64,000 bases of DNA from NCBI RefSeq assembly GCF_023055435.1, contig NW_025964383.1, forward strand, positions 48,670,001-48,734,000, read 5' to 3'. This stretch comes from Haliotis rufescens (lineage: Eukaryota). A program made the position numbers and the translations under genes. Of the stretch, positions 1,540 to 64,000 are shown one piece after another (position 1 is the first letter of the stretch; every line of letters starts with the position of its first letter). The notes under the pieces are model-generated. The model saw only the letters and a program-made list of their open reading frames with translations, was not told where the DNA came from and ran no database searches.

Positions 1540-2556
1540 GTAAGAGCGTACCTTGTTAGTACTTTAGTATCTGCATAACGCGTACCATGTTAGTACTTGA
1601 GTGTCTGAATAACATTGATGGTGAGTTCATGAGTTGCGTTAATACAGCTTTCAGCAGATTTTTAGTATCAGATTAATGTGATTTAAGTCCAAACTGTCGT
1701 TGCTCTGATATATGTCAGAGTGGTCGCCATGAAAGCCAGTAGAATATATAGATTCAAGGTTAATAGTGATGAATTAGAACCTGCGGCAACGTCAAAGTGA
1801 GGCAACTCTGCACTGCATCAACCATGTTTAAGTGAGTCGAGTTTTAACCCAATTTACAATAGTTTATCAGTTGTGTTACATGAATACCGATGGTTTCATG
1901 TGGGAGATTAGACACAAAGATATTGTTTGTTTCTTATATTGAGTGAGAACAGATTCGGTAAGGCATATACAAGTACGTTTTCGGTAACAATCAAGTAGCC
2001 TGCCTACAAACTATTGGTAACCACTCACAACTGGAGTCTTGTGCTGTGACGTGTATGTCCTGGAGATGCAAGGTCTGTAGAATGACGGCAAACTATCGGC
2101 AATTGTCCTAGTTACTTATCATTACAGGACGTTGTTTGTTAGGCTCATCCCATACGTGTTCAGTCTGGCTCAAAGCTGGATTGAAATGCTCAGCATAGAT
2201 CATTCTCTATATCACGACGCTTATGAATTCTCTGCGTGAATGTAGCTGTGCAGGGAATAGGTGCTATCTTGCTGAAAGGCGTATCATTAGTGAAGAGCAC
2301 CGCATACCATTTTGATGCATTCTGATGTCCTGATGCTTGGACCACCCAACGGATATGTCTCGTCAGCTTATTTTGTCATTTCCAACAATCGTCATCGACT
2401 GATGTTGTCACCAGTTGTGATGTCGCATTGTCCACTGTCTGATTGGACACCAAAGAAAATTAAATTAGAAATGTTTACTTCTATAGCACTTTGGTGTATT
2501 CATATGGTTTAATTTGATGAAACTGTATATATTCATGTTCTTGTTTGATTCGACAG

Positions 2557-4028
2557 ATCCGTGTAATCTGAAATGGGTGCAAGTATTACACACAGACCAA
2601 AACGGTGGTGTCATTTCAGGAAGGAAAAGAGACCTACAACAGAGCGTTCTCCATGGGCGAAGAATAAGATTTGTTTTGAATAATACATACCACAATACAG
2701 CTGAGTTCGATTCGTGCACAAAGGTCGATGCAGATGCTTGCTGTCAGTCTATGCCACATGTCTCTGTCTATAACGAAGATGACTTCGATCCATCCGGGTC
2801 CTGGTCGTTAATGATTGTGTGTTCCACAGGGCATATACAGATGAAAACCTATTTCGTTGGTGGCAAGGCTAAATCTGATAAAACCATAAAATCCGCAATA
2901 ATTTGGTTTGCATTGCAAAAGGAAAAAACACAATATCCATCACCAGTTTATGCAAGTGGATACAAAGGAAATGTTTCTGTTAAGTACATAGACGCGCTTG
3001 CTACACATATTCTTCAAGGGTCTTCTGTTGCTATTTCCTGCATTAGTAACATATTTTATACTGCAAACTGCGAGGTGCTACCGAGAAAACATCCTAAATC
3101 AAGAGAAATCAGTTGCGAGGCTATTTGGGTCGTTGGTCAACATCAATACGGTAATCATAACATATTTATGAAAAATGCATACTGGTATTTTCTAATTCTA
3201 ACGTCTTTAGATTCATTTTACCAAAGTAGATGGTATATTGGGAATAACAAGTTTAGGACCAGCAACCGTAGCCATTTTAAAATGAAATGGTTTGTCGATG
3301 ATTGTTGGACCACGCTGCATGTCTCTGAGAGAAATGGATCTCTTAGTAACACATTGATGCATTTAAATTTCTTTGCTGACTGTGGACATTCTGTCAAAGT
3401 AAAATTTGATAACACAATAATGGAGGCAGAAGGTATCCGAATCTCAGGTGATCACCTGTCAGTGTTTTTGATATCATCCTTGTCCAAAAGAAATGCAGAG
3501 TACTTTAGAGAGGATCTAAACTGGGAGTTCAGGGTCGTGAGTACTACAGGAACTATTAGGACATATCGTCCTCTTGTGGGGGCATCGAACGTCACTCATA
3601 AGACAGCTACAATAGAGAGGAAGCCAATAACCTGGTTTGTGGATACAAAGAAGTGGGACCTTGTGTTGCACACTCTAAGGAATACTTCAGTTGTGAGCGG
3701 TTCGATCCTGGCAGTGAGATATGCCATAGCTCATGGTGCAGAAATCAGAATAGCTTTCCGATTTTCTAACGACTCCGGATTTCGCATCTATAAAGCACAT
3801 AACATTCACCTTGGACCCGAGCATCACGTTACAGCACAGGTTGTACGTGCTCTGAAAGAATACGAAGTAGGGAATGAGAACTTTCGACTTGATGATAATC
3901 CATGTTGGTATTTCAAACTAATATCTACCAAAGGGTATGTTGTTAGCACTGAATGGACCCTGAAAGGTGTGATAAATCACGGTCAAAGGTCGGATAAAGC
4001 AGAGATAAAGTGGTTTGCAAACCTTTAA
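2557..4028 (+). CDS. Uncharacterised protein with four ~120-aa internal repeats, copy 1 (main exon; ORF track 2514-4028)
   Basis: Long ORF intact in all three copies. Acceptor ttcttgtttgattcgacag|AT at 2556/2557. Repeating motif WxxVLHT..G..ISG...L...I..G..IR...W.F..vS.tG...I.WF. Confidence 0.85.
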
Positions 4029-5819: not shown

Positions 5820-6771
5820 GAGACGAAGTCACTGCCCGGAGAGGTGAGACGGAGTGAGGGTGAGGGGTAGAGGTCACAGGGGAAGACGAAGCCACTGCCC
5901 CGAGAGGTGAGACGATTTGAGGGTGAGGGGTAGAGGTCAGAGGAGCAGTTAAAGTAACTGCCCGGAGAGGTGAGACGGGGTGAGGGTGAGGGGTAGAGGT
6001 CAGAGGAGCAGTTAAAGTCACTGCCCGGAGAGGTGAGACGGGGTGAGGATGAGGGGTAGAGGTCAGAGGAGCAGTTAAAGTCACTGCCCGGAGAGGAGAG
6101 ACGGGATGAGGATGAGGGGTAGAGGTCAGAGGAGCAGTTAAAGTCACTGCCCGGAGAGGTGAGACGGGGTGAGGGTGAGGGGTAGAGGTCACAGTGGAAG
6201 ACGAAGTCACTGCCCCGAGAGGTGAGACGGGGTGAGGGTGAGGGGTAGAGGTCACAGGGGAAGACGAAGTCACTGCCCCGAGAGGTGATACGGCGTGTGG
6301 GTGAGGGGAAGAGGTCACAGGGGAAGACGAAGTCACTGACCGGAGAGGTGAGACGGGGTGAGGGTGAGGGGTAGAGGTCACAGGGGAAGACGAAGTCACT
6401 GCCCCAAGAGGTGAGACGGGTTGTGGGTGAGGGGTAGAGGTCACAGGGGAAGACGAAGTCACTGCTCCGAGAGGTGAGACGGGGTGTGGGTGAGGGGTAG
6501 AGGTCACAGGGGAAGACGAAGTCACTCCCTGGAGAGGTGAGACGGGGTGTGGGTGAGGGGTAGAGGTCACAGGGGAAGACGAAGTCACTGCCCCAAGAGG
6601 TGAGACGGGGTGAGGGCGAGGGGTAGAGGTCACAGGGGAAGACGAAGTCACTCCCTGGAGAGGTGAGACGGGGTGTGGGTGAGGGGTAGAGGTCACAGGG
6701 GAAGACGAAGTCACTGACCGGAGAGGTGAGACGGGGTGAGGGTGAGGGGTAGAGGTCACAGGGGAAGACAA
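5820..6771. repeat. 63-bp G-rich minisatellite, ~15 units
   Basis: Unit gtcactgccccgagaggtgagacggggtgagggtgaggggtagaggtcacaggggaagacgaa. Confidence 0.95.
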
Positions 6772-12605: not shown

Positions 12606-13635
12606 GTAAGAGCGTACCTTGTTAGTACTTTAGTATCTGCATAACGCGTACCATGTTAGTACTTGAGTGTCTGAATAACATTGATGGTGAGTTCATGAGT
12701 TGCGTTAATACAGCTTTCAGCAGATTTTTAGTATCAGATTAATGTGAGATTAAAGTCCAAACAGACGTTGCCCTTATATATGTCAGAGTGGTCGCCATGA
12801 AAGCCAGTAGAATATGAATAATAATTCCAAGGTTAATAATGAGGAATTAGAACCTGCGGACACGTCAAAGTGAGGCATCTCTGCACTGCATCAACCATGT
12901 TTAAGTGAGTCAAGTTTTAACGCTATTTACAATAGTTTATCAGTTGTGTTACATGAATACCGACGGTTACACGTGGGAGTATAGACACAAATATATTGTT
13001 TTTATCTTATATTCAGTGAGAACAGATTCGGTAAGGCATATATAAGTACGTTTTCGGTAACAATCAAGTAGCCTGCCTACAAATTATTGGTAACCACTCA
13101 CAACTGGAGTCTTGTGCTGTGACGTGTATACCCTTGAGATGCAAGGTCTGTAGAATGACGCCAAACTATCGTCAATTGTTCTGGTTACTTATCATTACAG
13201 GACGTTGTTTGTTAGGCATATTGGGGCATGTGTTCAGTCTGGCTCAAATTTGAATTGGAAAGCTGAGCATAGATCATTCTCTATATTACGACGCCTATGG
13301 ATGCTCTGCGTGAATGTAGCTGTACAGGGAATGGGTGCTATCTTGCTGAAAGGCGTATCGTTAGTGAAGAGCACCGCACCGCATACAATTTGGATGCATT
13401 TTGATATCCTGATGCTTGGACCACCCCATGGATATATCTCGTCAGCTTATTTTGTCATTTCTAATAATCGTCATCGACTGATGTTGACACCAGTTGTGAT
13501 GTCGCATTGTCCACTGTCTGATTGGACACCAAAGAAAGTTAAATTAGAAATTTGTACTTCTATAAGACTTTGATGTATTTATAAGGTTTCATTTGATGAA
13601 ACTGTATATATTCATGTTCTTGTTTAATTCGACAG

Positions 13636-15107
13636 ATCCGTGTAAACTGAAATGGGTGCAAGTATTACACACAGACCAAAACGGTGGTGTCATTTCAGGA
13701 AGGAAAAGAGACCTACAAAAGAGCGTTCTCCATGGGCGAAGAATCAGATTTGTTTTGAATAATACATACCACAATTCAGCTGAGTTCGATATGTGCAGAA
13801 AGGTCGATGCAGATGCTTGCTGTCAGTCTATGCCACATGTCTCTGTCCATAACGAAGATGACTTCGATCCATCCGGGTCCTGGTCGTTTATGATGGTGTG
13901 TTCCACAGGGCATATACAGATGAAAACCTATTTCGTTGGTGGCAAGGCTAAATCTGATAAAACCATAAAAACCGCAATAATGTGGTTTGCATTGCAAAAG
14001 GATAAAATACGATATCCATCACCAGTTTTTGCAGGTGGGTACAAAGGAAATGTTTCTGTTAAGAACATAGACGCGCTTGCTACACATATTCTTCAAGGGT
14101 CTTCTGTTGCTATTTCCTGCATTAGTAACATATTTTATACTGCAAACTGCGAAGTGCTACCGAGAAAACATCCTAAATCAAGAGAAATCAGTTGCGAGGC
14201 TATTTGGGTCGTTGGTCAACATCAATACGGTAATCATAACATATTTATGAAAAATGCATACTGGTATTTTCTAATTCTAACGTCTTTAGATTCATTTTAC
14301 CAAAGTAGATGGTATATTGGGAATAACAAGTTTAGGACCAGCAACCGTAGCCATTTTAAAATGAAATGGTTTGTCGATGATTGTTGGACCACGCTGCATG
14401 TCTCTGAGAGAAATGGATCTCTTAGTAACACATTGATGCATTTAAATTTCTTTGCTGACTGTGGACATTCCGTCAAAGTAAAATTTGATAACACAATAAT
14501 GGAGGCAGAAGGTATCCGAATCTCAGGTGATCACCTGTCAGTGTTTTTGATATCATCCTTGTCCAAAAGAAATGCAGAGTACTTTAGAGAGGATCTAAAC
14601 TGGGAGTTCAGGGTCGTGAGTACTACAGGAACTATTAGGACATATCGTCCTCTTGTGGGGGCATCGAACGTCACTCATAAGACAGCTACAATAGAGAGGA
14701 AGCCAATAACCTGGTTTGTGGATACAAAGAAGTGGGACCTTGTGTTGCACACTCTAAGGAATACTTCAGTTGTGAGCGGTTCGATCCTGGCAGTGAGATA
14801 TGCCATAGCTCATGGTGCAGAAATCAGAATAGCTTTCCGATTTTCTAACGACTCCGGATTTCGCATCTATAAAGCACACAACATTCACCTTGGACCCGAG
14901 CATCACGTTACAGCACAGGTTGTACGTGCTCTGAAAGAATACGAAGTAGGGAATGAGAACTTTCGACTTGATGATAATCCATGTTGGTATTTCAAACTAA
15001 TATCTACCAAAGGGTATGTTGTTAGCACTGAATGGACCCTGAAAGGTGTGATAAATCACGGTCAAAGGTCGGATAAAGCAGAGATAAAGTGGTTTGCAAA
15101 CCTTTAA
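13636..15107 (+). CDS. Uncharacterised four-repeat protein, copy 2 (chimeric; ORF track 13593-15107)
   Basis: Intact ORF with acceptor at 13635/13636. The N-terminal third matches copy 3 and the remainder matches copy 1. Confidence 0.85.
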
Positions 15108-16825: not shown

Positions 16826-17713
16826 GAGACGAAGTCACTGCCCGGAGAGGTGAGACGGAGTGAGGGTGAGGGGTAGAGGTCACAGGGGAAGACGAAGCCA
16901 CTGCCCCGAGAGGTGAGACGATTTGAGGGTGAGGGGTAGAGGTCAGAGGAGCAGTTAAAGTAACTGCCCGGAGAGGTGAGACGGGGTGAGGGTGAGGGGT
17001 AGAGGTCAGAGGAGCAGTTAAAGTCACTGCCCGGAGAGGTGAGACGGGGTGAGGATGAGGGGTAGAGGTCAGAGGAGCAGTTAAAGTCACTGCCCGGAGA
17101 GGTGAGACGGGGTGAGGGTGAGGGGTAGAGGTCACAGTGGAAGACGAAGTCACTGCCCCGAGAGGTGAGACGGGGTGAGGGTGAGGGGTAGAGGTCACAG
17201 GGAAAGACGAAGTCACTGCCCCGAGAGGTGATACGGCGTGTGGGTGAGGGGAAGAGTCACAGGGGAAGACGAAGTCACTGCCCCAAGAGGTGAGACGGGG
17301 TGAGGGTGAGGGGTAGAGGTCACAGGGGAAGACGAAGTCACTGCCCCAAGAGGTGAGACGGGTTGTGGGTGAGGGGTAGAGGTCACAGGGGAAGACGAAG
17401 TCACTGCCCCGAGAGGTGAGACGGGGTGTGGGTGAGGGGTAGAGGTCACAGGGGAAGACGAAGTCACTGACCGGAGAGGTGAGACGGGGTGAGGGTGAGG
17501 GGTAGAGGTCACAGGGGAAGACGAAGTCACTGACCGGAGAGGTGAGACGGGGTGAGGGTGAGGGGTAGAGGTCACAGGGGAAGACGAAGTCACTCCCTGG
17601 AGAGGTGAGACGGGGTGAGGGCGAGGGGTAGAGGTCACAGGGGAAGACGAAGTCACTGACCGGAGAGGTGAGACGGGGTGAGGGTGAGGGGTAGAGGTCC
17701 CAGGGGAAGACAA
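16826..17713. repeat. 63-bp G-rich minisatellite, ~14 units
   Basis: Same unit as 5820-6771; one unit has a 1-bp deletion near 17255. Confidence 0.95.
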
Positions 17714-23660: not shown

Positions 23661-24698
23661 GTAAGAGCGTACCTTGTTAGTACTTTAGCATCTGCATAAC
23701 GCGTACCATGTTAGTACTTGAGTGTCTGAATAACATCGATGGTGAGTTCGTGAGTTGCGTTAATACAGCTTTCAGCAGATTTTTAGTATCAGATTAATGT
23801 CAGATGAAAGTCCAAACTGACGTTGCCCTTATATATGTCAGAGTGGTCGCCATGAAAGCCAGTAGAATATGAATAATAATTCCAAGGTTAATAATGAGGA
23901 ATTAGAACCTGCGGACACGTCAAAGTGAGGCAACTCTGCACTGCATCAATCATGTTTAAGTGAGTCGAGTTTTAACGCCATTTACAATAGTTTATCAGTT
24001 GTGTTACATGAATACCGACGGTTACACGTGGGAGTATAGACAAAAATATATTGTTTTTATCTTATATTCAGTGAGAACAGATTCGGTAAGGCATATACAA
24101 GTACGTTTTCGGTAACAATCAAGTAGCCTGCCTACAAACTATTGGTAACCACTCACAACTGGAGTCTTGTGCTGTGACGTGTATGTCCTGGAGATGCAAG
24201 GTCTGTAGAATGACGCCAAACTATCGGCAATTGTTCTGGTTACTTATCATTACAGGATGTTGTTTGTTAGGCATATTGGGGCTCACCCACACGTGTTCAG
24301 TCTGGCTCAAATTTGGATTGAAATGCTGAGCATAGATCATTCTCTATATTACGACGCTTATGGATGCTCTGCGTGAATGTAGCTGTACAGGGAATGGGTG
24401 TTATCTTGCTGAAAGGCGTATCGTTAGTGAAGAGCGCCGCACCGCATACAATTTGGATGCATTTTGATATCCTGATGCTTGGACCACCCCATGGATATAT
24501 CTCGTCAGCTTATTTTGTCATTTCTAATAATCGTCATCGACTGATGTTGACACCAGTTGTGATGTCGCATTGTCCACTGTCTGATTGGACACCAAAGAAA
24601 GTTAAATTAGAAATTTGTACTTCTATAGCACTTTGGTGTATTTATAAGGTTTCATTTGATGAAACTGTATATATTCATGTTCTTGTTTAATTCGACAG

Positions 24699-26170
24699 AT
24701 CCGTGTAAACTGAAATGGGTGCAAGTATTACACACAGACCAAAACGGTGGTGTCATTTCAGGAAGGAAAAGAGACCTACAAAAGAGCGTTCTCCATGGGC
24801 GAAGAATCAGATTTGTTTTGAATAATACTTACCACAATTCAGCTGAGTTCGATATGTGCAGAAAGGTCGATACAGATGCTTGCTGTCAGTCTATGCCACA
24901 TGTCTCTGTCCATAACGAAGATGACTTCGATCCATCCGGGTCCTGGTCGTTTATGATGGTGTGTTCCACAGGGCATATACAGATGAAAACATATTTCGTT
25001 GGTGGCAAGGCTAAATCTGATAAAACCATAAAAACCGCAATAATGTGGTTTGCATTGCAAAAGGATAAAATACGATATCCATCACCAGTTTTTGCAAGTG
25101 GATACAAAGGAAATGTTTCTGTCAAGAACACAGACGCGCTTGCTACAAATATTCTTCAAGGGTCTTCTATTGCTATTTTCTGCATTAGTAGCATATTTTA
25201 TACTGCCAACTGCGAGGTGCTACCGAGAAAACATCCTAAACCAAGAGAAATCAGTTGCGAGGCTATTTGGGTCGTTAGTGACTATCAATACGGTAATCAT
25301 TACATATTTAAGAACAATGCATACTGGTATTTTCTAATTCTAACGTCTTTAGATTCATATTACCAAAGTAGATGGTATATTGGGAATAACAGGTTGATCT
25401 TCCACAACCGTAAGCATTTTAAAATGAAATGGTTTGTCGATGACTGTTGGACCACGCTGCATGTCTCTGAGAGAAATGGATCTCTTAGTAACACATTGAT
25501 GCATTTAAAATTTTTTGCTGACTGTGGACATTCCGTCAAAGTTAAATTTGATAACACAATAATGGAGGCAGAAGGTATCCGAAGCTCAGGTGATCACCTG
25601 TCAGTGTTTTTGGTATCATCCTTGTCCAAAAGAAATGCAGAGTACTTTAGAGAGGATCTAAACTGGGAGTTCAGGGTCGTGAGTACTACAGGAACTATTA
25701 GGACATATCGTCCTCTTGTGGGGGCATCGAACGTCACTCATAAGACAGCTACAATAGAGAGGAAGCCAATAACCTGGTTTGTGGATACAAAGAAGTGGGA
25801 CCTTGTGTTGCACACTCTAAGGAATACTTCAGTTGTGAGCGGTTCGATCTTGGCAGTGAGATATGCCATAGCTCATGGTGCAGAAATCAGAATAGCTTTC
25901 CGATTTTCTAACGACTCCGGATTTCGCATCTATAAAGCACACAACATTCACCTTGGACCCGAGCATCACGTTACAGCACAGGTTGTACGTGCTCTGAAAG
26001 AATACGAAGTAGGGAATGAGAACTTTCGACTTGATGATAATCCATGTTGGTATTTCAAACTAATATCTACCAAAGGGTATGTTGTTAGCACTGAATGGGC
26101 CCTGAAAGGTGTGATCAATCACGGTCAAAGGTCGGATAAAGCAGAGATAAAGTGGTTTGCAAACCTTTAA
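24699..26170 (+). CDS. Uncharacterised four-repeat protein, copy 3 (ORF track 24656-26170)
   Basis: Intact ORF with acceptor at 24698/24699; divergent segments in repeat 2. Confidence 0.85.
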
Positions 26171-27959: not shown

Positions 27960-28275
27960 AGAGACGAAGTCACCTCCCGGTGAGGTGAGGCGGGATGAGG
28001 ATGAGGGGTAGAGGTCACGGGGAAAGACGAAGTCACTGCCCGGAGAGGTGAGACGGGGTGAGGGTGAGGGGTAGAGGTCACGGGGAACGACGAAGTCACT
28101 GCCCGGAGAGGTGAGACGGGGTGAGGGTGAGGGGTAGAGGTCACGGGGAACGACGAAGTCACTGCCCGGAGAGGTGATACGGGATGAGGGTGAGGGGTAG
28201 AGGTCACAGGGGAAGACGAAGTCACTGCCCAGAGAGGTTAGACGGGCTGAGGATGAGGGGTAGAGGTCACAGGGG
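27960..28275. repeat. 63-bp G-rich minisatellite, ~5 units
   Basis: Same unit as in copies 1 and 2. Confidence 0.9.
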
Positions 28276-29307: not shown

Positions 29308-29932
29308 NNNNNNNNNNNNNNNNNNNNNNNNNNNNNNNNNNNNNNNNNNNNNNNNNNNNNNNNNNNNNNNNNNNNNNNNNNNNNNNNNNNNNNNNNNNNN
29401 NNNNNNNNNNNNNNNNNNNNNNNNNNNNNNNNNNNNNNNNNNNNNNNNNNNNNNNNNNNNNNNNNNNNNNNNNNNNNNNNNNNNNNNNNNNNNNNNNNNN
29501 NNNNNNNNNNNNNNNNNNNNNNNNNNNNNNNNNNNNNNNNNNNNNNNNNNNNNNNNNNNNNNNNNNNNNNNNNNNNNNNNNNNNNNNNNNNNNNNNNNNN
29601 NNNNNNNNNNNNNNNNNNNNNNNNNNNNNNNNNNNNNNNNNNNNNNNNNNNNNNNNNNNNNNNNNNNNNNNNNNNNNNNNNNNNNNNNNNNNNNNNNNNN
29701 NNNNNNNNNNNNNNNNNNNNNNNNNNNNNNNNNNNNNNNNNNNNNNNNNNNNNNNNNNNNNNNNNNNNNNNNNNNNNNNNNNNNNNNNNNNNNNNNNNNN
29801 NNNNNNNNNNNNNNNNNNNNNNNNNNNNNNNNNNNNNNNNNNNNNNNNNNNNNNNNNNNNNNNNNNNNNNNNNNNNNNNNNNNNNNNNNNNNNNNNNNNN
29901 NNNNNNNNNNNNNNNNNNNNNNNNNNNNNNNN
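29308..29932. other. Assembly gap (625 N)
   Basis: Run of N. Confidence 1.
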
Positions 29933-31867: not shown

Positions 31868-34783
31868 TCAATCAAGGGAAAATTCTGTGACAGGAACAAG
31901 TCGACACTGCTCTGTACTGGCGCCTTCTTGGATCTCGTCTGGTAGCTGACCAACTCTGTCTCCCTCAGTCATATCCTCATAGTGATGTAGTGACATGTAC
32001 TCCCTGCTGGGGGCATCTGTCTGTGCCGCGTTCACGGCCTCATCATTAGCACCGTGTTTCCTGTAAACAGAATGTTTCATTTTGTCAAACACAAGAACAA
32101 CATATTTATTAATGCACACGCACAATTATGCATTGATGTTTTAAATTATCAATTGTGTATTTAGCGGTCATGTGTTGTATTAAAAAAGATAATAGATTTG
32201 ATATTTTACTTTACGTCTCTCCATCTACCAATCGTTTACATCACAACGTTGTCCGGTTACTCGATGATAACAACATGCCATTTTACACTATATATAGTCA
32301 ATACCAACCGTAATCATTAGAAATATCCGCTTGAAACAAAGTATGTTGTGCGCTTCCAACTAGGCTTTACAAAGGCCGTGAATGTTGTCAGTTTGATCTA
32401 ACAAGTTTTGAACAAACTTATACGCTCGTAGAAAGAGCATGTTCGGTTGTAGCTCACAAGTGAAATGCGGACACCAAAGGCTGGAACTTCCTCGACAAGA
32501 ACAAACCTTTTCGTACTCAATCCTTTACGGTAACAGACGTAACATGTGAAACTAGCCACAAGGATGATAATAATATTCAACACAACTAGTGTCAAGGTCA
32601 CAGTGTTGGAGGCCTCTGGGTTCTGCACGTCTGAAATAGGTAACAAATCACAATCATGGAACATAGTGTCTGCCAAGAAGTGAGTGGGTGTATGTATTTT
32701 AACATGCTCCGGATTGTAAATCACAAAGAGTCCATACTGCATCGATCGAAGGAAGTGTGATACAATAGTACTCGGTCATGTATCAAAGCGTGACTTGGTT
32801 TCCCATATTTGCATTCTACGATTTAAAAACTTTTACAAGTTCCAGGTTAACCCATTTTAAAGGATCCAGAAGGAGATTGCTAGTGATACCACATTCCTGT
32901 ATACATCAAGCAAACAAACAAACAAACAAACTATACTCCTGTACTCCTGGTCACAAACACCCTCGAGAGAACTAATTACAACTATCTCCAACTGCTGTGA
33001 CCGCTGAAACAAGCTTCAGTGTCCAAAGATCAATATTAAATGGCGGTCTGTCAGAGCTCTCAGCATGGCTTACCTGTGTCACAGGATCCCGTAGAACAAT
33101 TAGATAATGAGGCGTTGTTTGTGCAGTTGTACCTACACGTGTATCGAGTGATGTTGTACACAGGTATACATAAACTGGAGCTTGTGTCAGTAATATCATC
33201 CTGACATAAATTGCATGATAGGTTGCAACCATCCCCAGCTAAACCACTGTTGCAACCATTGCAACAAGGTCCGATGTTTAAGGCACAGGTGAGGTTGAGG
33301 CACTTCTCCAGGCATCGTTCACATCCATACTTAATATGTCTCTGTGCACATCCTTCAATACACGCACCTGCGCGGTTACACCTTTGATGTGTGCAGTCAG
33401 AGTTGCATCGCCTTGAACACTTCGGGCCGTACCAGCCATCTACACAACCGTGAACACACTCGCCAGTCTGGCTGTGGCACTCTGGGGTACATGAGTCTCC
33501 CTCAGGACATTGTTCATCAGTAGACAGGGAGGGATCAGCTCGGCAGGTGTCACTGCATGCTTCAGTACAGTTGTCTCCATAGAATCCTTGTCTGCATCCC
33601 TGTTGGCAGCCACTCTCACATCCACCGACACAGTGCTCACACGAGGATCTACAGTCCAGTCCAGAATATGGAGGCTGACACTCCTCACATGTTCCTGTGA
33701 TCCTGTTGCAGGACTTACATCTGCTGGAACACGTCCTACATCCTGCTCCGTGGTATGAGTCGCTGCAGCCAGAGAAACAAACTCCACCCATCTGGCAATA
33801 CTCGCCATCACATCCACCTGGGCATCTGGTACAGTTGCCATTGTTATTGTAACATGGCCTCTGGCAGTTTGAGCCTTGGAATCCCGGGATGCAGCCATAA
33901 GTACATCTCCCAATACCCCTATCAGGAAGCAGGTGACATGTGTTGTTCCTGCACCTTGTGCTGCAAACATCCCTGTATGTGGCGCCGAAATATCCCCTAT
34001 GGCACTCTGTGAGGCATCCTTGTGTCTGCGCATCACACTCGGAGCATTGCTGAATACTCCAACAGTTAGCACCTAGAAAAGAATATGATAAAGATATATT
34101 TTGCTATACATATTTGATCAAGAAAGTTACTGCAACAACACACACAATTGGGTGATGTAATGTGAGTTGGGTTTAACGCCGCTTTTAACAGTATTCCAGT
34201 CATATCACAGCGTGTGTGATGTAATGTGGAAAAGTGTTGCCAGCAATCCAGTAGAAGCAGCTTAACTTCTTATGCCAGTCAGACAAGTCTCGACAACATA
34301 ATCGTGTATTTGGTCGGGTTTGGGAAAATAATGCCACAAGTCTTGGCGATGCGGTCTGCAAGTCTGCAATCTTGCGAAGGAGATATAGAAATACAATGAG
34401 CAGTGTAAGGACAGGTCATGAGTGACTTTTCAACAGGGGGACGCACATTTCATAAGTTTCTTTTCTAATGCACTTTCCTCACCTCCAATATAAAGAGATT
34501 TTGTCAATTGGTATGCAGTCAAAACCACTGTTTATCTATGATTATGAAGAACATTATAACAAAAAAGCATAAACATGACGCCCACGTACAATAAGGTGCA
34601 TTCATTATCTATGGGCATCGTTATTAAACAACTAATTTGATGATAATGTCAAAACCTTGAAGCGCCGCCAACAAGTCCTACGATGACCTACCTCATGCAG
34701 CACAATGAATATAGATAACTCATCTGCTTACCTTGTGTGGGGATAAGCATCCATGCAATCACTGTTATCCCAAGAGGCCACAT
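31868..34783 (-). CDS. EGF/laminin-EGF-rich type-I membrane receptor (MEGF10/Draper/SCARF-like), ~455 aa, 4 coding exons: 34783-34732, 34072-33074, 32630-32507, 32060-31868
   Basis: Signal-peptide exon MWPLGITVIAWMLIPTQG. A 999-bp Cys-rich exon with CxxGyyGxxC units. TM exon (LTLVVLNIIIILVASFTCYVCY followed by RK). Tail exon with YMSL/YEDM. All introns are GT-AG with compatible phases (1,1,2), and the exons total 1368 nt. An acceptor at 34791 implies an upstream 5'UTR exon. Confidence 0.88.
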
Positions 34784-50267: not shown

Positions 50268-52679
50268 TTAAAACAACGACAGTATACGTTCATGTTTCTT
50301 TGTTTGTGCGATGTCTGCTGCTGTAGCACCACTCTTGTTGACATCCTTGATGTCTATTCCAGGCAGTGGGAGGATGTACTGCACCATCTGCACATTGCAT
50401 TCTTCATCTCCTCCAGCACAGGCGACGTGAAGGATGTTGTTGTCGTCATCATCAACCACAGACGAATCACAACCCTTCTGTAGAAGGAAATCTAATACGT
50501 CTATATGTCCACCCTCTGATGCTATCATCGCTGCAGTCTTCCCGTACCTGCCCCTGCTGTTGATGTCAATAGATGTACCCATCAGGACCCTCTCCACAAT
50601 GTCCTCATTTCCTCCACTAGATGCTAGATGCAGGATGTTGTTATTGTAAACATCCACAAGTGTCAAAATGGCCCCTTCTTTCACAAGTAAGTCAAATAAA
50701 GGTTTACATCCGCGGTTTGCTGCCACCATCACCGGCGTCCTTCCGTCTCGCCCTGCACTGTTGATGTCGAAAAAGTGTTTTAAGAGTAGATAGTTTGCAA
50801 TGCTCATATTATCGCGAATGCAGGCCAGTTGGAGCATATTGTCACCATGGTTGTCTACATGTAGGAGATTTGCATGTTCCCTAATGAGAAGTTCCAGAAC
50901 GTCTCTGTTGCCCTGACGTGCTGCCAACATCGCTGGCGTCTGCCCCCGGCAGTCTTTCGTGTCAATGTCAACAAGTTCTAGTGTCAGGAGTTCAGTCACC
51001 ATGATCACATTGTTTCCTAAGCAGGCCAAGTGAAGGATGTTCATTCCATCAGCATCTACTTCTGAAACATCACCCCCTTTACAAACTGTGAAATAGAAGA
51101 CGTCAATGTTGCCAAATTCTGCTGCAAACATCATGGGCGTCCGTCCATGTTTACCCTTACAGTTGATATCAAAATACCCTTTAGAGACAATATACTTCAC
51201 CATCTCTGCGTGTCCTCCCATGCATGCCACATGGAGGATATTATCATTATCCTCATCAACGACAAACACATCACATTGTTTTGTCAAAAGGAGATCAAAC
51301 ACTTTCATATTGCCTTTCTCAACTGCCATCATCAATGCAGTTCGCCCTTTGTATTTTCCCCTTTTGTTGATGTCAAAGGTGAACCGGGAGAGTACATATT
51401 CTACCATATCCACATGACCCCCACGACAGGCAGCATGGAACACCGTATCTTCTTCCTCATTATCAAGTGACAAATCACATCCTTCACCCAAAAGAAAATC
51501 GAAAACATCCTTACGGCCACTCTCTGCCGCAAGGATCAACATCCTCCCATCATTCAGGCCATCCGTGAAATCCAGTGAGGCGATATGCATTATCATTGGT
51601 AAATCCCCTCCAAGACAAGCAACATAAATGAGCTTGTTCCCCAAGCTGTCTCTGATGGTGATGTCCCCTCCTTTACGCCTCACTATCTCAAAGGCTTCCT
51701 TGTGTCCTGTTTCTGCTGCCGCCATCAGGGGTGTCCTCCCCTTCGTGTCTGTGCCGTGGATCTGTTGCTGCTGTCGCCCTGGTAAGTTCCTGTCACAGAT
51801 GTGCTGCACCATGCTCCTGTAGCCTCCCCTGCACGCCACATGGAGGATGTTGTTGCCCTCGGTGTCTTTCATCGACCTGTCTCCTCCTTCTTTTAAGAGT
51901 AGGTTGTACACGTCTTTGTGTCCACACTCCGCTGCTACCATCAATGGTGTTCTTCCATCTTGCCTCCTACTGTTGATTCCCACAAGGCGCTTTGAGAGGA
52001 TGTACTTCACAATGTGCACCTTCCCTCCAGCACAAGCCACGTGAAGGATGTTCAATCCCTTGTCATCTAACAGCGACGTGCTGCCTCCTTTCTCTATGAT
52101 CAAATCGAAAATTCGTCGAGAACCAGCCCATGCTGCCTTCATTATTGGGGTTCTGCCTAACTTCCCTCTACAGTTGATGTTAAATATTTTACGTGAAAGC
52201 AGATGTTCAACAATGAACAAATGGCCTTTAAGACAAGCCAAGTGCAGAAGGTTATCACCATCATCCCCAACATGTCTCACATCGCAGTTGATGTTGTTTA
52301 TAAGTTCCAGATACACATGTCGACACCCATGTCGAGCGGCCACCATCACCGGCGTCCATCCGTGTTTGCCTCTCACGTTGATGTCAATCCTTCCATCTGA
52401 GAGAATCAACTTCACTATTTTCAGACGATTTCTGGAGCAGGCAACATGCAAAATGGTGTCACCATCTTCATCCAAGAGTGACATGTCAGCTTGCTTCCTG
52501 TGGAGTAGTTTAAACACCCCAACATGCTCCCCATGTGCAGCTGCCATCACCGGTGTCCAGCCGTGTGCCCCCCTGGTGTTGATGTCCACTCGATCTTCCT
52601 GTAGGATGCGAGTAACTGCATCCAACCTCCCCGAGCAGCAGGCCTGGTACAGATCCGTGTTGATGTTGGTGGACGACAT
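50268..52679 (-). CDS. Ankyrin-repeat protein A, ~803 aa, ~23 repeats, single coding exon
   Basis: Uninterrupted ORF of alternating GRTPxMxAA / GDNILHVAC repeats. Acceptor tatcttgcag|G immediately precedes ATG 52679. Candidate 5'UTR exon donor CAG|GTAAG at 53263. Confidence 0.92.
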   Translation of the reverse strand: MSSTNINTDLYQACCSGRLDAVTRILQEDRVDINTRGAHGWTPVMAAAHGEHVGVFKLLHRKQADMSLLDEDGDTILHVACSRNRLKIVKLILSDGRIDINVRGKHGWTPVMVAARHGCRHVYLELINNINCDVRHVGDDGDNLLHLACLKGHLFIVEHLLSRKIFNINCRGKLGRTPIMKAAWAGSRRIFDLIIEKGGSTSLLDDKGLNILHVACAGGKVHIVKYILSKRLVGINSRRQDGRTPLMVAAECGHKDVYNLLLKEGGDRSMKDTEGNNILHVACRGGYRSMVQHICDRNLPGRQQQQIHGTDTKGRTPLMAAAETGHKEAFEIVRRKGGDITIRDSLGNKLIYVACLGGDLPMIMHIASLDFTDGLNDGRMLILAAESGRKDVFDFLLGEGCDLSLDNEEEDTVFHAACRGGHVDMVEYVLSRFTFDINKRGKYKGRTALMMAVEKGNMKVFDLLLTKQCDVFVVDEDNDNILHVACMGGHAEMVKYIVSKGYFDINCKGKHGRTPMMFAAEFGNIDVFYFTVCKGGDVSEVDADGMNILHLACLGNNVIMVTELLTLELVDIDTKDCRGQTPAMLAARQGNRDVLELLIREHANLLHVDNHGDNMLQLACIRDNMSIANYLLLKHFFDINSAGRDGRTPVMVAANRGCKPLFDLLVKEGAILTLVDVYNNNILHLASSGGNEDIVERVLMGTSIDINSRGRYGKTAAMIASEGGHIDVLDFLLQKGCDSSVVDDDDNNILHVACAGGDEECNVQMVQYILPLPGIDIKDVNKSGATAADIAQTKKHERILSLF

Positions 52680-53056
52680 CCTGCAAGATACATAGTAAGT
52701 GATTAGTCTACGACTGCACACATTTAATAAAGTATAACACTCTGGGGCATAGCTAAGTGATTAAAGACAGGTTCCATTCCTCACATATGTACATTTGAAA
52801 TCCTTTTATTGGTTTCAATGCTTTGATATGGATGAAATATTGCTAACATTAGCAGCAGAAAAACGCCCTCAAAATCTAAATAGTTGTACATTTAGTTATG
52901 TAATTGTTATGTCACAAGTGTTATGTCACAATTGTTATGTATGTAGACATTATTTTGTTGGGGAACAACCATGATGATGTGTCATGATGACCCCCAAAGA
53001 TCCTGCACTTATTATCGTGCATTGTCTTGTATAAGTATGTGTCTTTCTCTATAAAG

Positions 53057-56801: not shown

Positions 56802-59800
56802 TCAACTTGGCATGTTGTCCGAGAGCCCCTGGTGGCCGTGTTCCCTGGCTACCATTGCTGCTGTGGACCCGAAATGGTTCCTGGCAGTCACGTCAACAAG
56901 GTCCAGCTGGATTATGTGTTTCACCATCTTCTCATCTCCCCCACTGCACGCCACGTGGAGGATGTTGTCCCCGTTTACATTCAACACAGACACGTCACAT
57001 TCTTCACTGACAAGGAAGTCAAACACCTGAATGTGTCCACTCTTTGCTGCCAACATCAGCGGTGTCATCCCAACATGTTCTACACCGTTTATGTCGACCA
57101 TGTCGCGCAGAACCACATACTCCACCATCTCCAGGTGCCCCCCGCTGCAGGCAACGTGTAACAGGTTATCACCATTGTGATTCACCAGAGACACATCTGC
57201 TCCTCTTCTTACAAGCAGGTCTACCACACCTAAATGGCCCATTCGTGATGCAATCATCACTGCTGTCCTTCCGTACTGATTTGTGATGTTGAGATTTACA
57301 TGATATTTATAAAGAATGTGCTTCACCATGTCCAAGTGACCCCCATAGCAAGCCACGTGGAGGATGTTGTCCCCGTGGTTATTTACAAGTGACACATCTG
57401 CACCTCTGCTTACCAGGAGATCAAACACGCCCTTATGTCCCCAGCGTGCTGCGATCATGACGGGTGTTCTCCCGTACTCGCCTCTGCTGTTAATGTCCAC
57501 AACATGCTCTGAGAGGACATACTTGACTATGTCTGTGTTGCCCCCGATGCAGACAACGTGGAGGATGTTGTTGTTGTAGTCATCCACCAGAGACACGTCT
57601 CCACCTCTACTGATGAGCAAGTCCATCACGTCTCGGTGTCCCCCCTCAGCTGCTGACATGAGCGGCGTTCCTCCGTACTGCCCCCCGCTGTTGATGTCCA
57701 CAATGTCCAGTGAGACGATACATTCCACCATCTGCACATGTCCTCCAATACAGGCCACGTGGAGGATGCTGTCTCCATTGTCATCAACACACAACATGTC
57801 ACTGCCTTTACACACAAGGAAGTAAAACACATCCCGATGTCCAGACTCCGCTGCAAGCATCGCCGCCGTCCTCCCGTACTTCCCTCCACTGTTGATGTCA
57901 ACGATGTTTAGCGAGAGGACATACTTCACCATCTCTACATCTTCCCCTAAGGAGGCGACGTGGAGAATGTTGTTACCGTCATCATCCACCAGGGATGGGT
58001 CACCACCTTTACTTACGAGGACATCAAACACGTTTCTATTTCCCCTTAAAGCTGCAAACATCAGGGGTGTCTGTCCAGTCTTCCCTCTACTGTTCATGTC
58101 ACAAAGGTCCAATCTTAGGACATATAGAACCATCTCTATGTGTCCGCCAAGACAGGCTATATGGAGGAGGTTGTTATTGTCCACATCCGATACGGATAAA
58201 TCACATCCCTGCGCCCTAAGTAGATCAATTACTTTTGTATGACCCCTTTCTGCTGCAAACATCAGAGGAGTTCGATCATTGCTTCCTATACTTGTGACTC
58301 CAGCAATGTTTTCTGACATGACACGCTGTACAATCTTCACACTACCCCCACTACATGCCAGGTGTAGTATGTTGTTGTTGTGACCATCCTTTAATGACAG
58401 GTCAGCTCCTTTACCGACAAGCAAATCAAACACTCCTCCATGTCCCCCCTCAGCTGCTAACATCACTGGCGTCTGTCCGTTTCTTGTCTTACTGTTGATG
58501 CGAGCGATGCGTTTAGAGAGACAATGCAGCACCATGCTGCTACTTCCTCCCCGACACGCCACATGGAGCAAGTTTTCACCGTTAGAATCCACGAGTGACA
58601 CATCACCACCTTTATCAACAAGTACATTTAACACGCCCCTGTGTCCAAACATCGCTGCAATCATCACAGGCGTCCTCCCGCTCTTACCCCGGCAGTTGAC
58701 GCCGACGATGTGCTTGGACAGGATGTGCTTCACCATAGGCACATTATCTCTGTTACATGCTAAGTGTAAGATGGTGTCTCCGTGCTCGCTCACTACGGAC
58801 AGGTCAGCTCCTACCCTTTCAAGAAGGTCAAACACGGTCACATGACCTCCCCATGCTGCTTTCATAACTGGGGTTCTCCCGAACTTTCCTCGACTGTTTA
58901 TGTCAATAAAATCTTGTTCCAGGATATATTTCACTATCTCTATATTACCTCCCAAACATGCAAAATGCAGAATGTTGTCATCATCATCGCTCACTTGAGT
59001 TACATCGCTGCCGTTACTAACAAGGAAGTCAAACACCTTCTTGTGGCCATACCATGCTGCTAGCATCACCGGCGTCCTGCCGTCCTTTCCTTCAGCGTTG
59101 ACATCCGCTTGGCCACCAGACAGCAAGTGCTGCACTTGCTGCAACTTGCCCGTTCTACAGGCGACGTGGAGAACACTGTCAGAACTGGATGTACGTTTAG
59201 GAGCCACTGGAGGGACACAGGCGACATGGTGGTCACTGTCAGAACTGGATGTACGTTGAGGAGGAACTGGAGGGACACAGGCGCCGTGGAGGTCACTGTC
59301 AGAACTGGCTGTACGTTGAGGAGGAACTGGAGGGACACAGGCGCCGTGGAGGTCACTGTCAGAACTGGCTGTACGTTGAGGAAGAACTGGTGGGATAAAG
59401 GCGACGTGGTGGTCACTGTCAGAACTGGCTGTACGTTGAGGAGGAACTGGAGGGACACAGGCGCCGTGGAGGTCACTGTCAGAACTGGATGTACGTTGAG
59501 GAGGAACTAGTGGAACACAGGCGCCGTGGTGGTCACTGTCAGAACTGGATGTACGTTGAGGACGAACTGGTTGAACACAGGCGCCGTGGTGGTCACTGTC
59601 AGAACTGGATGTACGTTGAGGAGGAACTGGAAGGACACAGGCGCCGTGGAAGTCACTGTCAGAACTGGATGTACGTTGAGGACGAACTGGTTGAACACAG
59701 GCGACGTGGTGGTCACTGTCAGAACTGGATGTACGTTGAGGAGGAACTGGAGGGACACAGGCGCCGTGGAGGTCACTGTCAGAACTGGCTGTACGTTGAG

Positions 59801-61272
59801 GAGGAACTAGTGGAACACAGGCGCCGTGGTGGTCACTGTCAGAACTGGATGTACGTTGAGGACGAACTAGTGGAACACAGGCGCCGTGGTGGTCACTGTC
59901 AGAACTGGATGTACGTTGAGGACGAACTAGTTGAACACAGGCGCCGTGGTGGTCACTGTCAGAACTGGCTGTACGTTGAGGAGGAACTGGGGGGACACAG
60001 ACGCCGTGGTGGTCACTGTCAGAACTGGATGTACGTTGAGGAGGAACTGGGGGGACACAGGCGCCGTGGTGGTCACTGTCAGAACTGGATGTACGTTGAA
60101 GAGGTACTGGTGGAACACGGGCGACGTGGAGGTCACTGTCAGAACTGGATGTACGTTGAAGAGGGACTGGTGGAACACGGGCGACGTGGAAGTCACTGTC
60201 AGAACTGGATGTACGTTGAGGAGGACCTAGAGGGACACAGGCGCCGTGGAGGTCACTGTCAGAACTGGCTGTACGTTGAGGAGGACCTAGAGGGACACAG
60301 GCGCCGTGGTGGTCACTGTCAGAACTGGATGTACGTTGAGGAGGAACTGGAAGGACACAGGCGCCGTGAAGGTCACTGTCAGAACTGGATGTACGTTGAG
60401 GAGGAACTGGGGGGACACAGGCGCCGTGGTGGTCACTGTCAGAACTGGATGTACGTTGAAGAGGGACTGGTGGAACACGGGCGACGTGGAGGTCACTGTC
60501 AGAACTGGATGTACGTTGAGGAGGACCTAGAGGGACACAGGCGACGTGGAGGTCACTGTCAGAACTGGATGTACGTTGAGGAGGACCTAGAGGGACACAG
60601 GCGCCGTGGTGGTCACTGTCAGAACTGGATGTACGTTGAGGAGGACCTAGAGGGACACAGGCGCCGTGAAGGTCACTGTCAGAACCTTCCGAACATGGGG
60701 TAGGAGAGGGGACGCTGTCCTTTGTTTCTGGAACATTAAATACAGCTAGAGAAGTCGTATTGTTTGGCTTTAAATCAACACTGTTGTTCACCAGATTGTT
60801 CAATACAACCACTTCCAAGTTTCGTTTTGATATCGTTATGTTAATATTTCGGATACAGTGGCATTAAAACCTTTCCAAATCATTAATATATTGTTCATTC
60901 ACGTACACACACAACCCGTGAAGACCCGGGTTAGAACAGGTCTCCAGCAACACATGCTTGTCCTAAGAGCCGACTAACGGGATCGGGTGGACAGGCTCGC
61001 TGACTTGATTGATGCATGTCATCGTATCTGAGTCGATGTTCATGATGTCAATCACAGGACCTTCTGGTTTAGCCTCGATTATTTACGGACCGTCGCCATA
61101 TAGCTGGAATATGGCAGATTTCGCGGTTTAACAACAAACAAATACATAAACAATGCATTTTAAAATCACACGAAGCCGAGGGATGGTGGAATAGCCTCAG
61201 CACTGATACAGGATGATGTAACTGGACAAGAGAAACACTCTTCAACTCATCTAACGCATCTAACGTACACGT

Positions 61273-61320
<48 letters not shown>

Positions 61321-61458
61321 CCTGGTTATCGAATTACAAATACCACCATCAACGATCGCATATGAATCGGTACTTCCTGCTCTTTAAGAAAAAGACAATT
61401 GTCATGGAAGCTGGAGATAGGTAATAGCCATACCTTCAAATCTGTCGGGGTGATCCAT
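56802..61458 (-). CDS. Ankyrin-repeat protein B, ~1316 aa; exons 61458-61434 (MDHPDRFE) and 60727-56802; ~25 x 20-aa repeats followed by ~23 ankyrin repeats
   Basis: The 4-kb ORF has no in-frame ATG upstream of the ankyrin repeats. The phase-1 acceptor tttaatgttccag|AA at 60727 fits the phase-1 donor GAAG|GTATGG at 61434. Exons total 3951 nt. Confidence 0.85.
59157..60685 (-). repeat. Coding 60-bp minisatellite (SSSDSDHHGACVPPVPPQRT), ~25 units
   Basis: Exact 60-bp periodicity with no indels or stops on the coding strand. Confidence 0.97.
60915..61145 (+). mobile_element. SINE-like repeat family B, near full length, in the ankyrin B intron
   Basis: cccgtgaagacccgggttagaacaggtc...ctggaatatggc...aacaacaaacaa. 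Confidence 0.85.
61274..61320. repeat. Poly-C run plus (CA)n
   Basis: About 33 C followed by CA repeats. Confidence 0.9.
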
Positions 61459-61624
61459 CACGAGGCCGCATCTGCATCACACAAAGCCTTGCGTGATGTC
61501 TGCAACCAGCCAGACGAAAGCTGTTACCTAGTTATGCATATAACACCGAATAAAACAACAACATAACGCATCAACAGAATAGATAATCTATGGCAGTAAC
61601 GTTTCACTGGGAATATAGTTGTAT

Positions 61625-64000
61625 TTGGAGGTGCGTAAGTGATGGAAGTGCGTAAGTGTTGGAGGTGTGTAAGTGTTGGAGATGTGTAAGTGTTGGAGGT
61701 GTGTAAGTGTTGGAGGTGTGTAAGTGGCGGAAGTGCGTGAGTATTGGAGGTGTGTAAGTGTTGGAGGTGTGTAAGTGTTGGAGGTTTGTAAGTGTTGGAG
61801 GTGTGTAAGTGGCGGAAGTGCTTAAGTGTTGGAGGTGTGTAAGTGTTGGAGGTGTGTAAGTGTTGGATGTGTGTAAGTGTTGGAGGTGTGTAAGTGTTGG
61901 AGGTGTGTAAGTGTTGGAGGTGTGTACGTGTTGGAGGTGTGTAAGTGTTGGAGGTGTGTAAGTGTTAGATGTGTGTAAGTGTTGGGTGTGTGTAAGTGTT
62001 GGATGTGTGTAAGTGTTGGATGTGTGTAAGTGTTGGAGGTGTGTAAGTGTTGGAGGTGTGTAAGTGTTGGAGGTGTGTAAGTGTTGGATGTGTGTAAGTG
62101 TTGGAGGTGTGTAAGTGTTGGATGTGTGTAAGTGGTGGATGTATGTAAGTGGTGGATGTGTGTAAGTGTTGGAGGTGTGTAAGTGTTGGATGTGTGTAAG
62201 TGGTGGAGTTGTGTTAGTGGTGGAGGTGTGTATGTGGTGGAGGTGTGTAAGTGGTGGATGTGTGTAAGTGGTGGAGGTGTGTTAGTGGTGGAGGTGTGTA
62301 AGTGGTGGGGGTGTGTTAGTGGTGGATGTGTGTAAGTGGTGGAGGTGTGTTAGTGGTGGAGGTGTGTAAGTGTTGGAGGTGTGTAAGTGGCGGAAGTGCG
62401 TGAGTATTGGAGGTGTGTAAGTGTTGGAGGTGTGTAAGTGTTGGAGGTTTGTAAGTGTTGGAGGTGTGTAAGTGGCGGAAGTGCTTAAGTGTTGGAGGTG
62501 TGTAAGTGTTGGAGGTGTGTAAGTGTTGGATGTGTGTAAGTGTTGGAGGTGTGTAAGTGTTGGAGGTGTGTAAGTGTTGGAGGTGTGTACGTGTTGGAGG
62601 TGTGTAAGTGTTGGAGGTGTGTAAGTGTTAGATGTGTGTAAGTGTTGGGTGTGTGTAAGTGTTGGATGTGTGTAAGTGTTGGATGTGTGTAAGTGTTGGA
62701 GGTGTGTAAGTGTTGGAGGTGTGTAAGTGTTGGAGGTGTGTAAGTGTTGGATGTGTGTAAGTGTTGGAGGTGTGTAAGTGTTGGATGTGTGTAAGTGGTG
62801 GATGTATGTAAGTGGTGGATGTGTGTAAGTGTTGGAGGTGTGTAAGTGTTGGATGTGGGTAAGTGGTGGAGTTGTGTTAGTGGTGGAGGTGTGTATGTGG
62901 TGGAGGTGTGTAAGTGGTGGATGTGTGTAAGTGGTGGAGGTGTGTTAGTGGTGGAGGTGTGTAAGTGGTGGGGGTGTGTTAGTGGTGGATGTGTGTAAGT
63001 GGTGGAGGTGTGTTAGTGGTGGAGGTGTGTAAGTGTTGGATGTGTTTAAGTGGTGGATGTGTGTAAGTGGTGGAGGTGTGTAAGTGGTGGAGGTGTGTTA
63101 GTGGTGGAGGTGTGTAAGTGGTGGAGGTGTGTAAGTGGTGGAGGTGTAAGTTGTGGATGTGTGTAAGTGGTGGAGGTGTGTAAATGGTGGATATGTGTAA
63201 GTGGTGGAGGTGTGTAAGTGGTGGATGTGTGTAATCGGTGGATGTGTGTTAGTGGTGGAGTTGTGTAAGTGGTGGAGGTGTGTAAGTGGTGGAGGTGTGT
63301 TAGTGGTGGAGGTGTGTAAGTGGTGGAGGTTTGTTAGTGGTGGAGGTGTGTAAGTGGTGGATGTGTGTAAGTGGTGGAGGTTTGTAAGTGGTGGATGTGT
63401 GTAAGTGGTGGAGATTTATAAGTGGTGGATGTGTGTAAGTGGTGGAGGTGTGTTAGTGGTGGAAGTGTGTAAGTGGTGGAGGTGTGTTAGTGGTGGAGGT
63501 GTGTAAGTGGTGGAGGTGTGTAAGTGGTGGAGGTGTGTAAGTGGTGGATGTGTGTAAGTGGTGGAGGTGTGTAAGTGGTGGATGTGTGTAAGTGGTGGAG
63601 GTGTGTTAGTGGTGGAAGTGTGTAAGTGGTGGAGGTGTGTTAGTGGTGGATGTGTGTAAGTGGTGGATGTGTGTAAGTGGTGGAGGTGTGTAAGTGGTGG
63701 ATGTGTGTAAGTATTGGATGTATGTAAGTGGTGGAGGTGTGTAAGTGTTGGATGTGTGTAAGTGTTGGATGTGTGTAAGTGGTGGAGGTGTGTAAGTGGT
63801 GGATGTGTGTAAGTGGTGGAGGTGTGTTAGTGGTGGAAGTGTGTAAGTGGTGGAGGTGTGTTAGTGGTGGATGTGTGTAAGTGGTGGAGGTGTGTAAGTG
63901 GTGGATGTGTGTAAGTGGTGGATGTGTGTAAGTGGTGGAGGTGTGTAAGTGGTGGAGGTGTGTTAGTGGTGGATGTGTGTAAGTGGTGGAGGTGTGTTAG
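61625..64000. repeat. 17-bp GT-rich satellite (ggaggtgtgtaagtgtt), running off the window, with a 663-bp higher-order duplication
   Basis: The rare variant gtggcggaagtgcgtgagtatt recurs at offset 663, which is 39 x 17 (61728 vs 62391). Confidence 0.95.

Follow-up and report, generated by a model that had tools for sequence, protein, structure and literature searches.

A probable coding minisatellite built from linker and ankyrin-entry sequence in an abalone ankyrin-repeat gene

An ankyrin-repeat gene on the minus strand of the window (the whole 64,000-nucleotide stretch of Haliotis rufescens DNA analysed here) carries 25 head-to-tail units of 60 bp, placed in frame between a conserved exon 1 and the ankyrin repeats. 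The unit length lies within the 10–100 bp range of a minisatellite or coding VNTR. The copy number forms a series across species, with one unit in H. rubra, 10 in a sister species and 25 in the window, so that arm length varies between species and may perhaps also vary between transcripts. We consider it reasonably likely that this coding VNTR is a tolerated, near-neutral disordered arm, amplified by unequal exchange or slippage and shortenable in frame by splicing. The splice-site-like cassette found in every unit is a new point beyond the earlier reading of the array, made in a first-pass annotation of the same DNA.

Extent, frame and setting of the array

Tandem Repeats Finder places the array at 59157–60685 (period 60, 25.5 copies, 92% matches, 0% indels), and the coordinates of its parts and of the neighbouring gene features are collected in Table 1. 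Among the 25 units 22 are distinct, with a mean pairwise identity of 91%, and a 29-base unit pattern gave 24 matches, every one within the array, and none in 100 shuffles. The frame runs on from the array into the ankyrins with neither stops nor indels, the other two minus-strand frames containing 9 and 52 stops. The corresponding stop-to-stop open reading frame (56802–60863, minus strand, 1353 aa; protein P0001) has Pfam matches to ankyrin families only, in its C-terminal part, and no NTPase domain was found upstream of the ankyrins within the window. The first-pass annotation had described an array of about 25 copies of 20 residues without indel or stop, and this stands, as 25 full units and a half copy in the open ankyrin frame. 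Of its proposed extent, 59100–60685, the upper end agrees with ours but the lower end does not, since the array stops at 59157 if the half copy is counted and at 59185 if it is not. Units 5–6 apart show a mean of 4.2–4.5 differences and units 2–4 apart 5.6–5.9, which suggests duplication of multi-unit blocks, that is, a higher-order structure. Two other candidates were rejected: a 434-aa open reading frame on the plus strand, which is interrupted by two stops and lacks independent support, and an intron within the array, for which the coding strand offers no strong donor.

The window, P0075 (XP_071085961.1, 1016 aa, from the sister species) and H. rubra share the short first exon and the acceptor that follows it, which puts the array within coding exon 2. 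The coding residues of exon 1 are identical to the N-terminus of P0075 at 8/8 positions, the H. rubra orthologue begins at the equivalent Met, and the donor at 61434 is used by one spliced contig, from run X6. The candidate exon 1 extends to about 61499 and contains stops in all three frames, including an in-frame stop upstream of the ATG at 61458, as well as two out-of-frame upstream ATGs. P0075 has the exon-1 residues, the junction at the 60728 acceptor and then 10 units read in frame; this RefSeq model supports the earlier claim that the array is coding. The canonical product of the window's gene, comprising exon 1 and all units, is predicted to have 1316 aa. The protein that the databases list for the window itself, P0003, has 754 aa; it begins at the first Met after the array and excludes it.

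Table 1. Positions, in window coordinates, of the array, the gene that contains it and the comparison gene.
Feature	Positions	Strand	Basis
Exon 1, coding part (8 codons + 1 base; ATG at 61458, donor AAG/GTATGG)	61434–61458	minus	P0075 N-terminus match
Intron 1, phase 1, canonical acceptor ttccag at 60728	60728–61433	minus	Junction position agrees with RefSeq models P0075 and P0192
Unique exon 2 start, ETKDSVPSPTPCSEG, conserved in orthologues	60685–60727	minus	Orthologue comparison
Coding minisatellite, 25 x 60 bp (20 aa), consensus SDSDHHGACVPPVPPQRTSS	59185–60684	minus	Repeat and frame analysis
25 in-frame phase-1 acceptor-like sites, one per 60 bases (first exonic base 60646 ... 59206)	59206–60646	minus	Simple rules
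Half copy = entry of true ankyrin repeat 1 (SDSVLHVAC, then RTGK)	59157–59184	minus	First predicted helix starts here
Ankyrin region of 793 aa, in the array's exon; two repeat types alternate (12 and 11 copies, 23 in all)	56802–59184	minus	Pfam, repeat count
Candidate polyadenylation signal AATAAA	56524–56529	minus	Sequence motif only
Paralogue A, 803-aa ankyrin-only gene without arm	50268 to about 52679–52760	minus	Comparison gene

A dispersed repeat at 60915–61150 in intron 1 is probably a SINE-like element: about 1400–2100 contigs in each run match it, their summed depth being very high, and five further partial copies, 72–86% identical, are present elsewhere in the window. A 17-bp satellite of about 140 copies runs from just upstream of exon 1 to the window end (61626–63997), with the promoter or additional 5′ exons perhaps on its far side. 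At 1321–28273 a block of ~11 kb is present in three tandem copies, 92–97% identical, with an N gap then at 29308–29932. Each block has a 513-aa stop-to-stop open reading frame (2487–4028, 13566–15107 and 24629–26170), the first without Pfam match, and across the three a 63-bp minisatellite reaches 15.1, 14.1 and 5.0 copies (5821–6769, 16827–17711 and 27962–28275), with two minus-strand frames open, one of them Ser/Thr/Pro/His-rich. A Cys-rich open reading frame at 33060–34103 (minus strand) resembles EGF-type repeats and has no Pfam match at E 0.001; since the ankyrin paralogues P0127, P0184 and P0187 have a membrane-like segment ahead of their ankyrins, it may belong to such a receptor gene.

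Origin of the unit within Haliotis

The H. rubra orthologue P0192 has the shared exon 1 and exon-2 start, the spacer EGHINVDH, a single linker VPPPPREAS, the entry SDSDLHVAC and then ankyrin 1. This arrangement indicates that each unit combines the ancestral linker with the ankyrin entry, and the proposal in the first-pass annotation, that the unit joins a linker to the LHxAC entry of ankyrin 1, is thereby confirmed by an orthologue with exactly one such linker. The Asp of SDSD is the ancestral residue; at the true entry the window and P0075 have a derived Val. We rejected assembly collapse as an explanation for the one linker of H. rubra, because the spacer stands where a collapsed array would leave a unit. 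Models of the gene are found on three H. rubra contigs (P0193, P0192 and P0159), one of them split in two pieces, and these may be haplotypes, recent duplicates or assembly breaks.

Among the matches listed, the closest relatives of the gene are all Haliotis proteins and the whole protein, with its tandem ankyrins, fits the Haliotis ankyrin-repeat family. Ankyrin identity to orthologues is 757/784 (P0075) and 144/175, and to paralogues about 50%; in a quick tree of 18 proteins, a single clade unites P0003, P0075, P0004, P0192 and P0193 (support 100). The SDSD-x-H motif is present 25 times in P0001, 10 times in P0075 and once in P0192, and is absent from the other proteins compared (ids to P0322). 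Paralogue A has no similar arm, just as had been noted earlier, and a 20-aa arm before the ankyrins was seen in no other of 123 proteins scanned. An arm search over 8000 scored candidates gave 72 matches, through its ankyrin end, none of them arm-like outside these orthologues, and a second one, also of 8000 candidates, gave a single match, the H. rubra orthologue. In a third, the best 150 of 22,888 matches, a list crowded by ankyrin matches, included no best stretch below query residue 460 of 573. The Atlas yielded no usable match, a result that speaks neither for novelty nor for absence.

According to the consulted parts of PMC12627906, H. cracherodii, H. rufescens and H. discus hannai are close to each other and H. 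rubra and H. asinina are more distant. With these relationships and one array-free outgroup, the array probably arose on the H. cracherodii/H. rufescens/H. discus hannai side. The first-pass annotation had called the array young and probably length-polymorphic. The former needs qualifying, as the array is common to the sister species and unit sequence occurs in 4/4 RNA-like runs from four coded organisms; the latter holds between species, the evidence concerning species rather than individuals.

We propose that an ankyrin-only abalone gene gained a coding VNTR as follows. The 5′ end of the ancestral exon 2 contained a single proline-rich linker and, after it, the ankyrin-1 entry SDSDLHVAC, as H. 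rubra shows. Duplication of the 60-bp linker-plus-entry block and further amplification led to the 10 units of the sister species and the 25 of the window, with unequal crossing-over or slippage as the probable mechanism. The spacer EGHINVDH has been lost, and this presumably happened during the amplification. Since the unit is 20 codons long and nearly stop-proof, the frame would remain open without selection, and since the copies lack helix 2 and neighbouring repeats, they would not fold and are predicted to form a disordered N-terminal arm. This arm, of up to 500 aa, would sit on a predicted 23-repeat binding solenoid and would be tolerated and near neutral, rather than a selected metal-binding domain.

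Predicted structure, variation and possible splicing of the arm

An AlphaFold2 model of six units and seven ankyrin helix pairs (24-row alignment) assigned no secondary structure to the units (residues 1–110, pLDDT about 36–47), while the ankyrins (residues 121–340) reached pLDDT 94–98. The first helix (model residues 124–131) begins at the true entry, in the half copy (59184–59157). The low pLDDT of the arm stems partly from a shallow alignment, as the linker is covered by only two other rows. With 94 Ser and 77 Pro among 500 residues, arm composition is consistent with disorder, and the disordered arm of the first-pass annotation thus reappears in the prediction. An ankyrin repeat is a 33-residue helix-loop-helix, whereas the unit has 20 residues, no Pfam best stretch within the array and no helix; on this model it is an ankyrin fragment and not an ankyrin repeat itself. 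Extra folded half-ankyrins were rejected, the units being without helix and below pLDDT 50.

What keeps the frame open over so many units, then? Only 2/180 single-base changes in the consensus unit create a stop, and the probability that 25 distinct variants contain none is 0.76 by chance. An open frame is therefore to be expected, and we rejected it as proof of selection. The unit variants comprise 17 nonsynonymous and 8 synonymous changes (N/S 0.70, binomial p=0.36 vs neutrality), counts that are rough since the units share ancestry and are not independent. With halves of the unit picked post hoc, the SDSD+RTSS codons have 1 variant and the remaining twelve codons 24, both nonsynonymous (1/56 vs 16/78, p=0.001) and synonymous (0/16 vs 8/28, Fisher p=0.036) variants being deficient in the former. 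As the deficit extends to synonymous sites, it is more readily put down to homogenisation or a constraint on the RNA than to protein motifs. The invariant half goes beyond what simple neutrality accounts for.

These counts bear directly on the suggestion, made in the first-pass annotation, of about 25 Asp-His(-His)-x-x-Cys clusters and of repeated RTSS/SDSD phospho-motifs, from which one could picture a selected polyvalent arm for metal or redox binding or for phospho-docking. His/Cys-rich disordered peptides often bind Zn or Cu, one His is kept in 25/25 units and the SDSD core is constant. However, Cys is retained in 21/25 units, the four losses having occurred through two different changes, and in 9/10 units of P0075, and His-His is present in 13/25, so that the clusters are fewer than had been counted and the ligand residues lack the conservation across units expected of metal-binding His/Cys repeats. 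The His and Cys are moreover inherited from the ankyrin LHxAC consensus, near-invariant across the family, N/S is near neutral, and the H. rubra orthologue has no arm. As for the phospho-motifs, the invariant half is equally invariant synonymously, and RTSS is changed to RTSR, RASS, RTAI and RTAS in P0075. Selection for such an arm would thus be very improbable, and neither the metal clusters nor the phospho-motifs can be upheld as selected features.

The unit also contains the elements of a 3′ splice site, scored here by simple rules without a trained splice model. By these rules a splice-site consensus is present in 25/25 units, with YAG (C or T at −3), about 11/15 pyrimidines, a 29-base AG-free run and a branch-like CTGAC 33 bases upstream. 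Exon 1 could therefore join a unit and drop the units upstream of it without a frameshift, the predicted products ranging from 1289 down to 809 aa (last unit). Retention of YAG in all units is not significant by itself, as 40/60 unit columns are invariant. Two other AGs are constant (25 and 24 copies), both out of frame and with shorter AG-free runs, and six units contain one additional in-frame AG. The canonical acceptor is richer in T (8/15 vs 4–5/15 at unit sites) and may for this reason dominate over the unit sites.

The contigs of four sets, taken as RNA by guess and coming from four studies and four coded organisms, were aligned to 60600–61620, a range that includes the first unit and 25 bases of the second; none of the listed runs is on record as RNA. 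Unit sequence, in several variants, is covered in 4/4 sets (summed depth in the first bin 177, 159, 170 and 5.6), although these units may be transcribed from another locus. Intron 1 is bare in all four apart from the dispersed repeat, exon 1 is covered in 1/4 and the unique exon-2 start (60705–60727) in 0/4, gaps that are uninformative either way; the canonical exon 1–exon 2 junction was not seen in these sets over 60600–61620. In run X6, from a related organism, one contig (depth 3.37) joins the exon-1 donor to a repeat unit instead of the canonical acceptor. At the junction 27 letters, starting directly after a unit YAG, fit the 3′ part of the unit at 23/27 (by hand), 33 more letters fill one 60-base period, and the join is in frame with the ankyrins. 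The X6 organism, perhaps another species than that of the window, may have lost the canonical acceptor. The first-pass annotation had offered transcripts that splice the array out as a refutation of its reading, and the X6 contig goes part of the way, since it enters the array and skips its start.

If every unit acceptor were used, one allele could give up to 26 isoforms (809–1316 aa) in 20-residue steps, because each unit combines 20 codons with a complete in-frame 3′ splice site; we put this forward tentatively. A regulated ladder of 20-residue isoforms is possible, with a single contig behind it. A stronger version, in which the array has been kept because every unit is a working in-frame acceptor and cells set arm length by tissue or condition, seems unlikely to us. 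It would account for the in-phase cassette in all units, for the absence of synonymous variants from the half with the branch motif (a region picked post hoc) and for the sole exon-1 contig going to a unit acceptor. But that is a single junction, with no second rung, the two out-of-frame AGs are kept too, the invariant half could just as well result from homogenisation of the array, and the canonical acceptor is used in two RefSeq models. The array might instead be mostly untranslated, with transcripts beginning within or below it, or the upstream ATGs diverting ribosomes, and the protein starting at an internal Met, as in P0003, in the H. asinina model P0004 and in the H. rubra model P0193. 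The coverage of exon 1 in a single run agrees with this. Such a start would, however, remove ankyrin 1 and half of ankyrin 2, the exon-1 Met is conserved in H. rubra, P0075 and the window, and the X6 splice is in frame with the ankyrins. An internal start is called also in H. rubra, although the other model of that species is free of the array, and so looks like a 5′-incomplete model; we hold an untranslated array to be quite improbable. Against the tolerated, in-frame shortenable arm that we prefer we count that P0003 starts past the array and that the internal splice is one contig in 1/4 runs whose RNA status is guessed.

Relation to known arrays and to the abalone ankyrin family

In the CBS exon-13 31-bp VNTR and the interferon-induced 6-16 minisatellite each unit carries a splice donor, at an exon-intron boundary. 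The abalone array is similar in that tandem units give a series of alternative splice sites, but these are acceptors, lie inside the coding sequence and are all in frame. It also resembles the human MUC1 coding VNTR, described in the consulted parts of PMC12776774, in its 60-bp/20-aa unit, in-frame logic, Ser/Pro-rich composition, location in exon 2 and variable copy number. It differs in that the abalone unit derives from the protein's own folded ankyrin domain, and the protein is no mucin, its predicted N-terminus showing neither an evident signal peptide nor a membrane segment. The variable internal repeats treated in the consulted parts of PMC2812944 share with it minisatellite growth in a large paralogue family, accretion of amino-acid repeats and splicing-out through cryptic sites. 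In the human paralogues reported there, new introns appear at exon-intron boundaries, whereas the abalone units are alternative in-frame acceptors of an existing intron, and, in contrast to those cases, the abalone outgroup displays the single-copy ancestor. Repeats can change splicing via protein binding or branch-point spacing (PMC13196383, PMC10078293), and the consulted parts of these two papers contain no per-unit acceptor array. Our literature search, with subscription papers mostly outside it, found no report of the abalone array or of a coding array of in-frame acceptors. VNTRs in coding sequence that alter splicing are already known, and the abalone array is a well-resolved variant.

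Upstream of their ankyrins, many Haliotis paralogues have either an apparent membrane segment or PF20720, which we take to be the nSTAND3 NTPase and which makes them NLR-like, whereas the array gene has neither within the window. Five PF20720 paralogues (P0085, P0107, P0137, P0173 and P0188) carry an unrelated 11-aa tandem repeat at the N-terminus, and repeat arms may therefore have arisen more than once in the family. The orthologue of paralogue A has the next accession number after P0075, which suggests synteny. The array gene shares the alternating two-repeat module of the expanded Haliotis ankyrin family, with its many paralogues in four Haliotis species, and the same source, in the parts consulted, describes an enrichment of ankyrin genes on one abalone chromosome that is non-syntenic and points to links with host defence (PMC12627906). 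An ankyrin transcript is raised in abalone resilient to summer mortality (PMC5405107, consulted in part). The consulted parts of these two papers do not name the array gene. An isoform ladder, about which we are rather doubtful, would amount to VNTR length variation that is somatic and set by splicing, in an ankyrin protein with a possible part in defence.

If there is no ladder, the array is a tolerated coding VNTR of the ordinary kind, in a gene family that evolves fast, and tells us little about function. If the unit acceptors do work as a ladder, they show how in-frame splicing can buffer or tune a large expansion of coding sequence. The gene provides an unusually clean record of how a repeat region arises out of part of a folded domain, the 1-, 10- and 25-copy states being all available.
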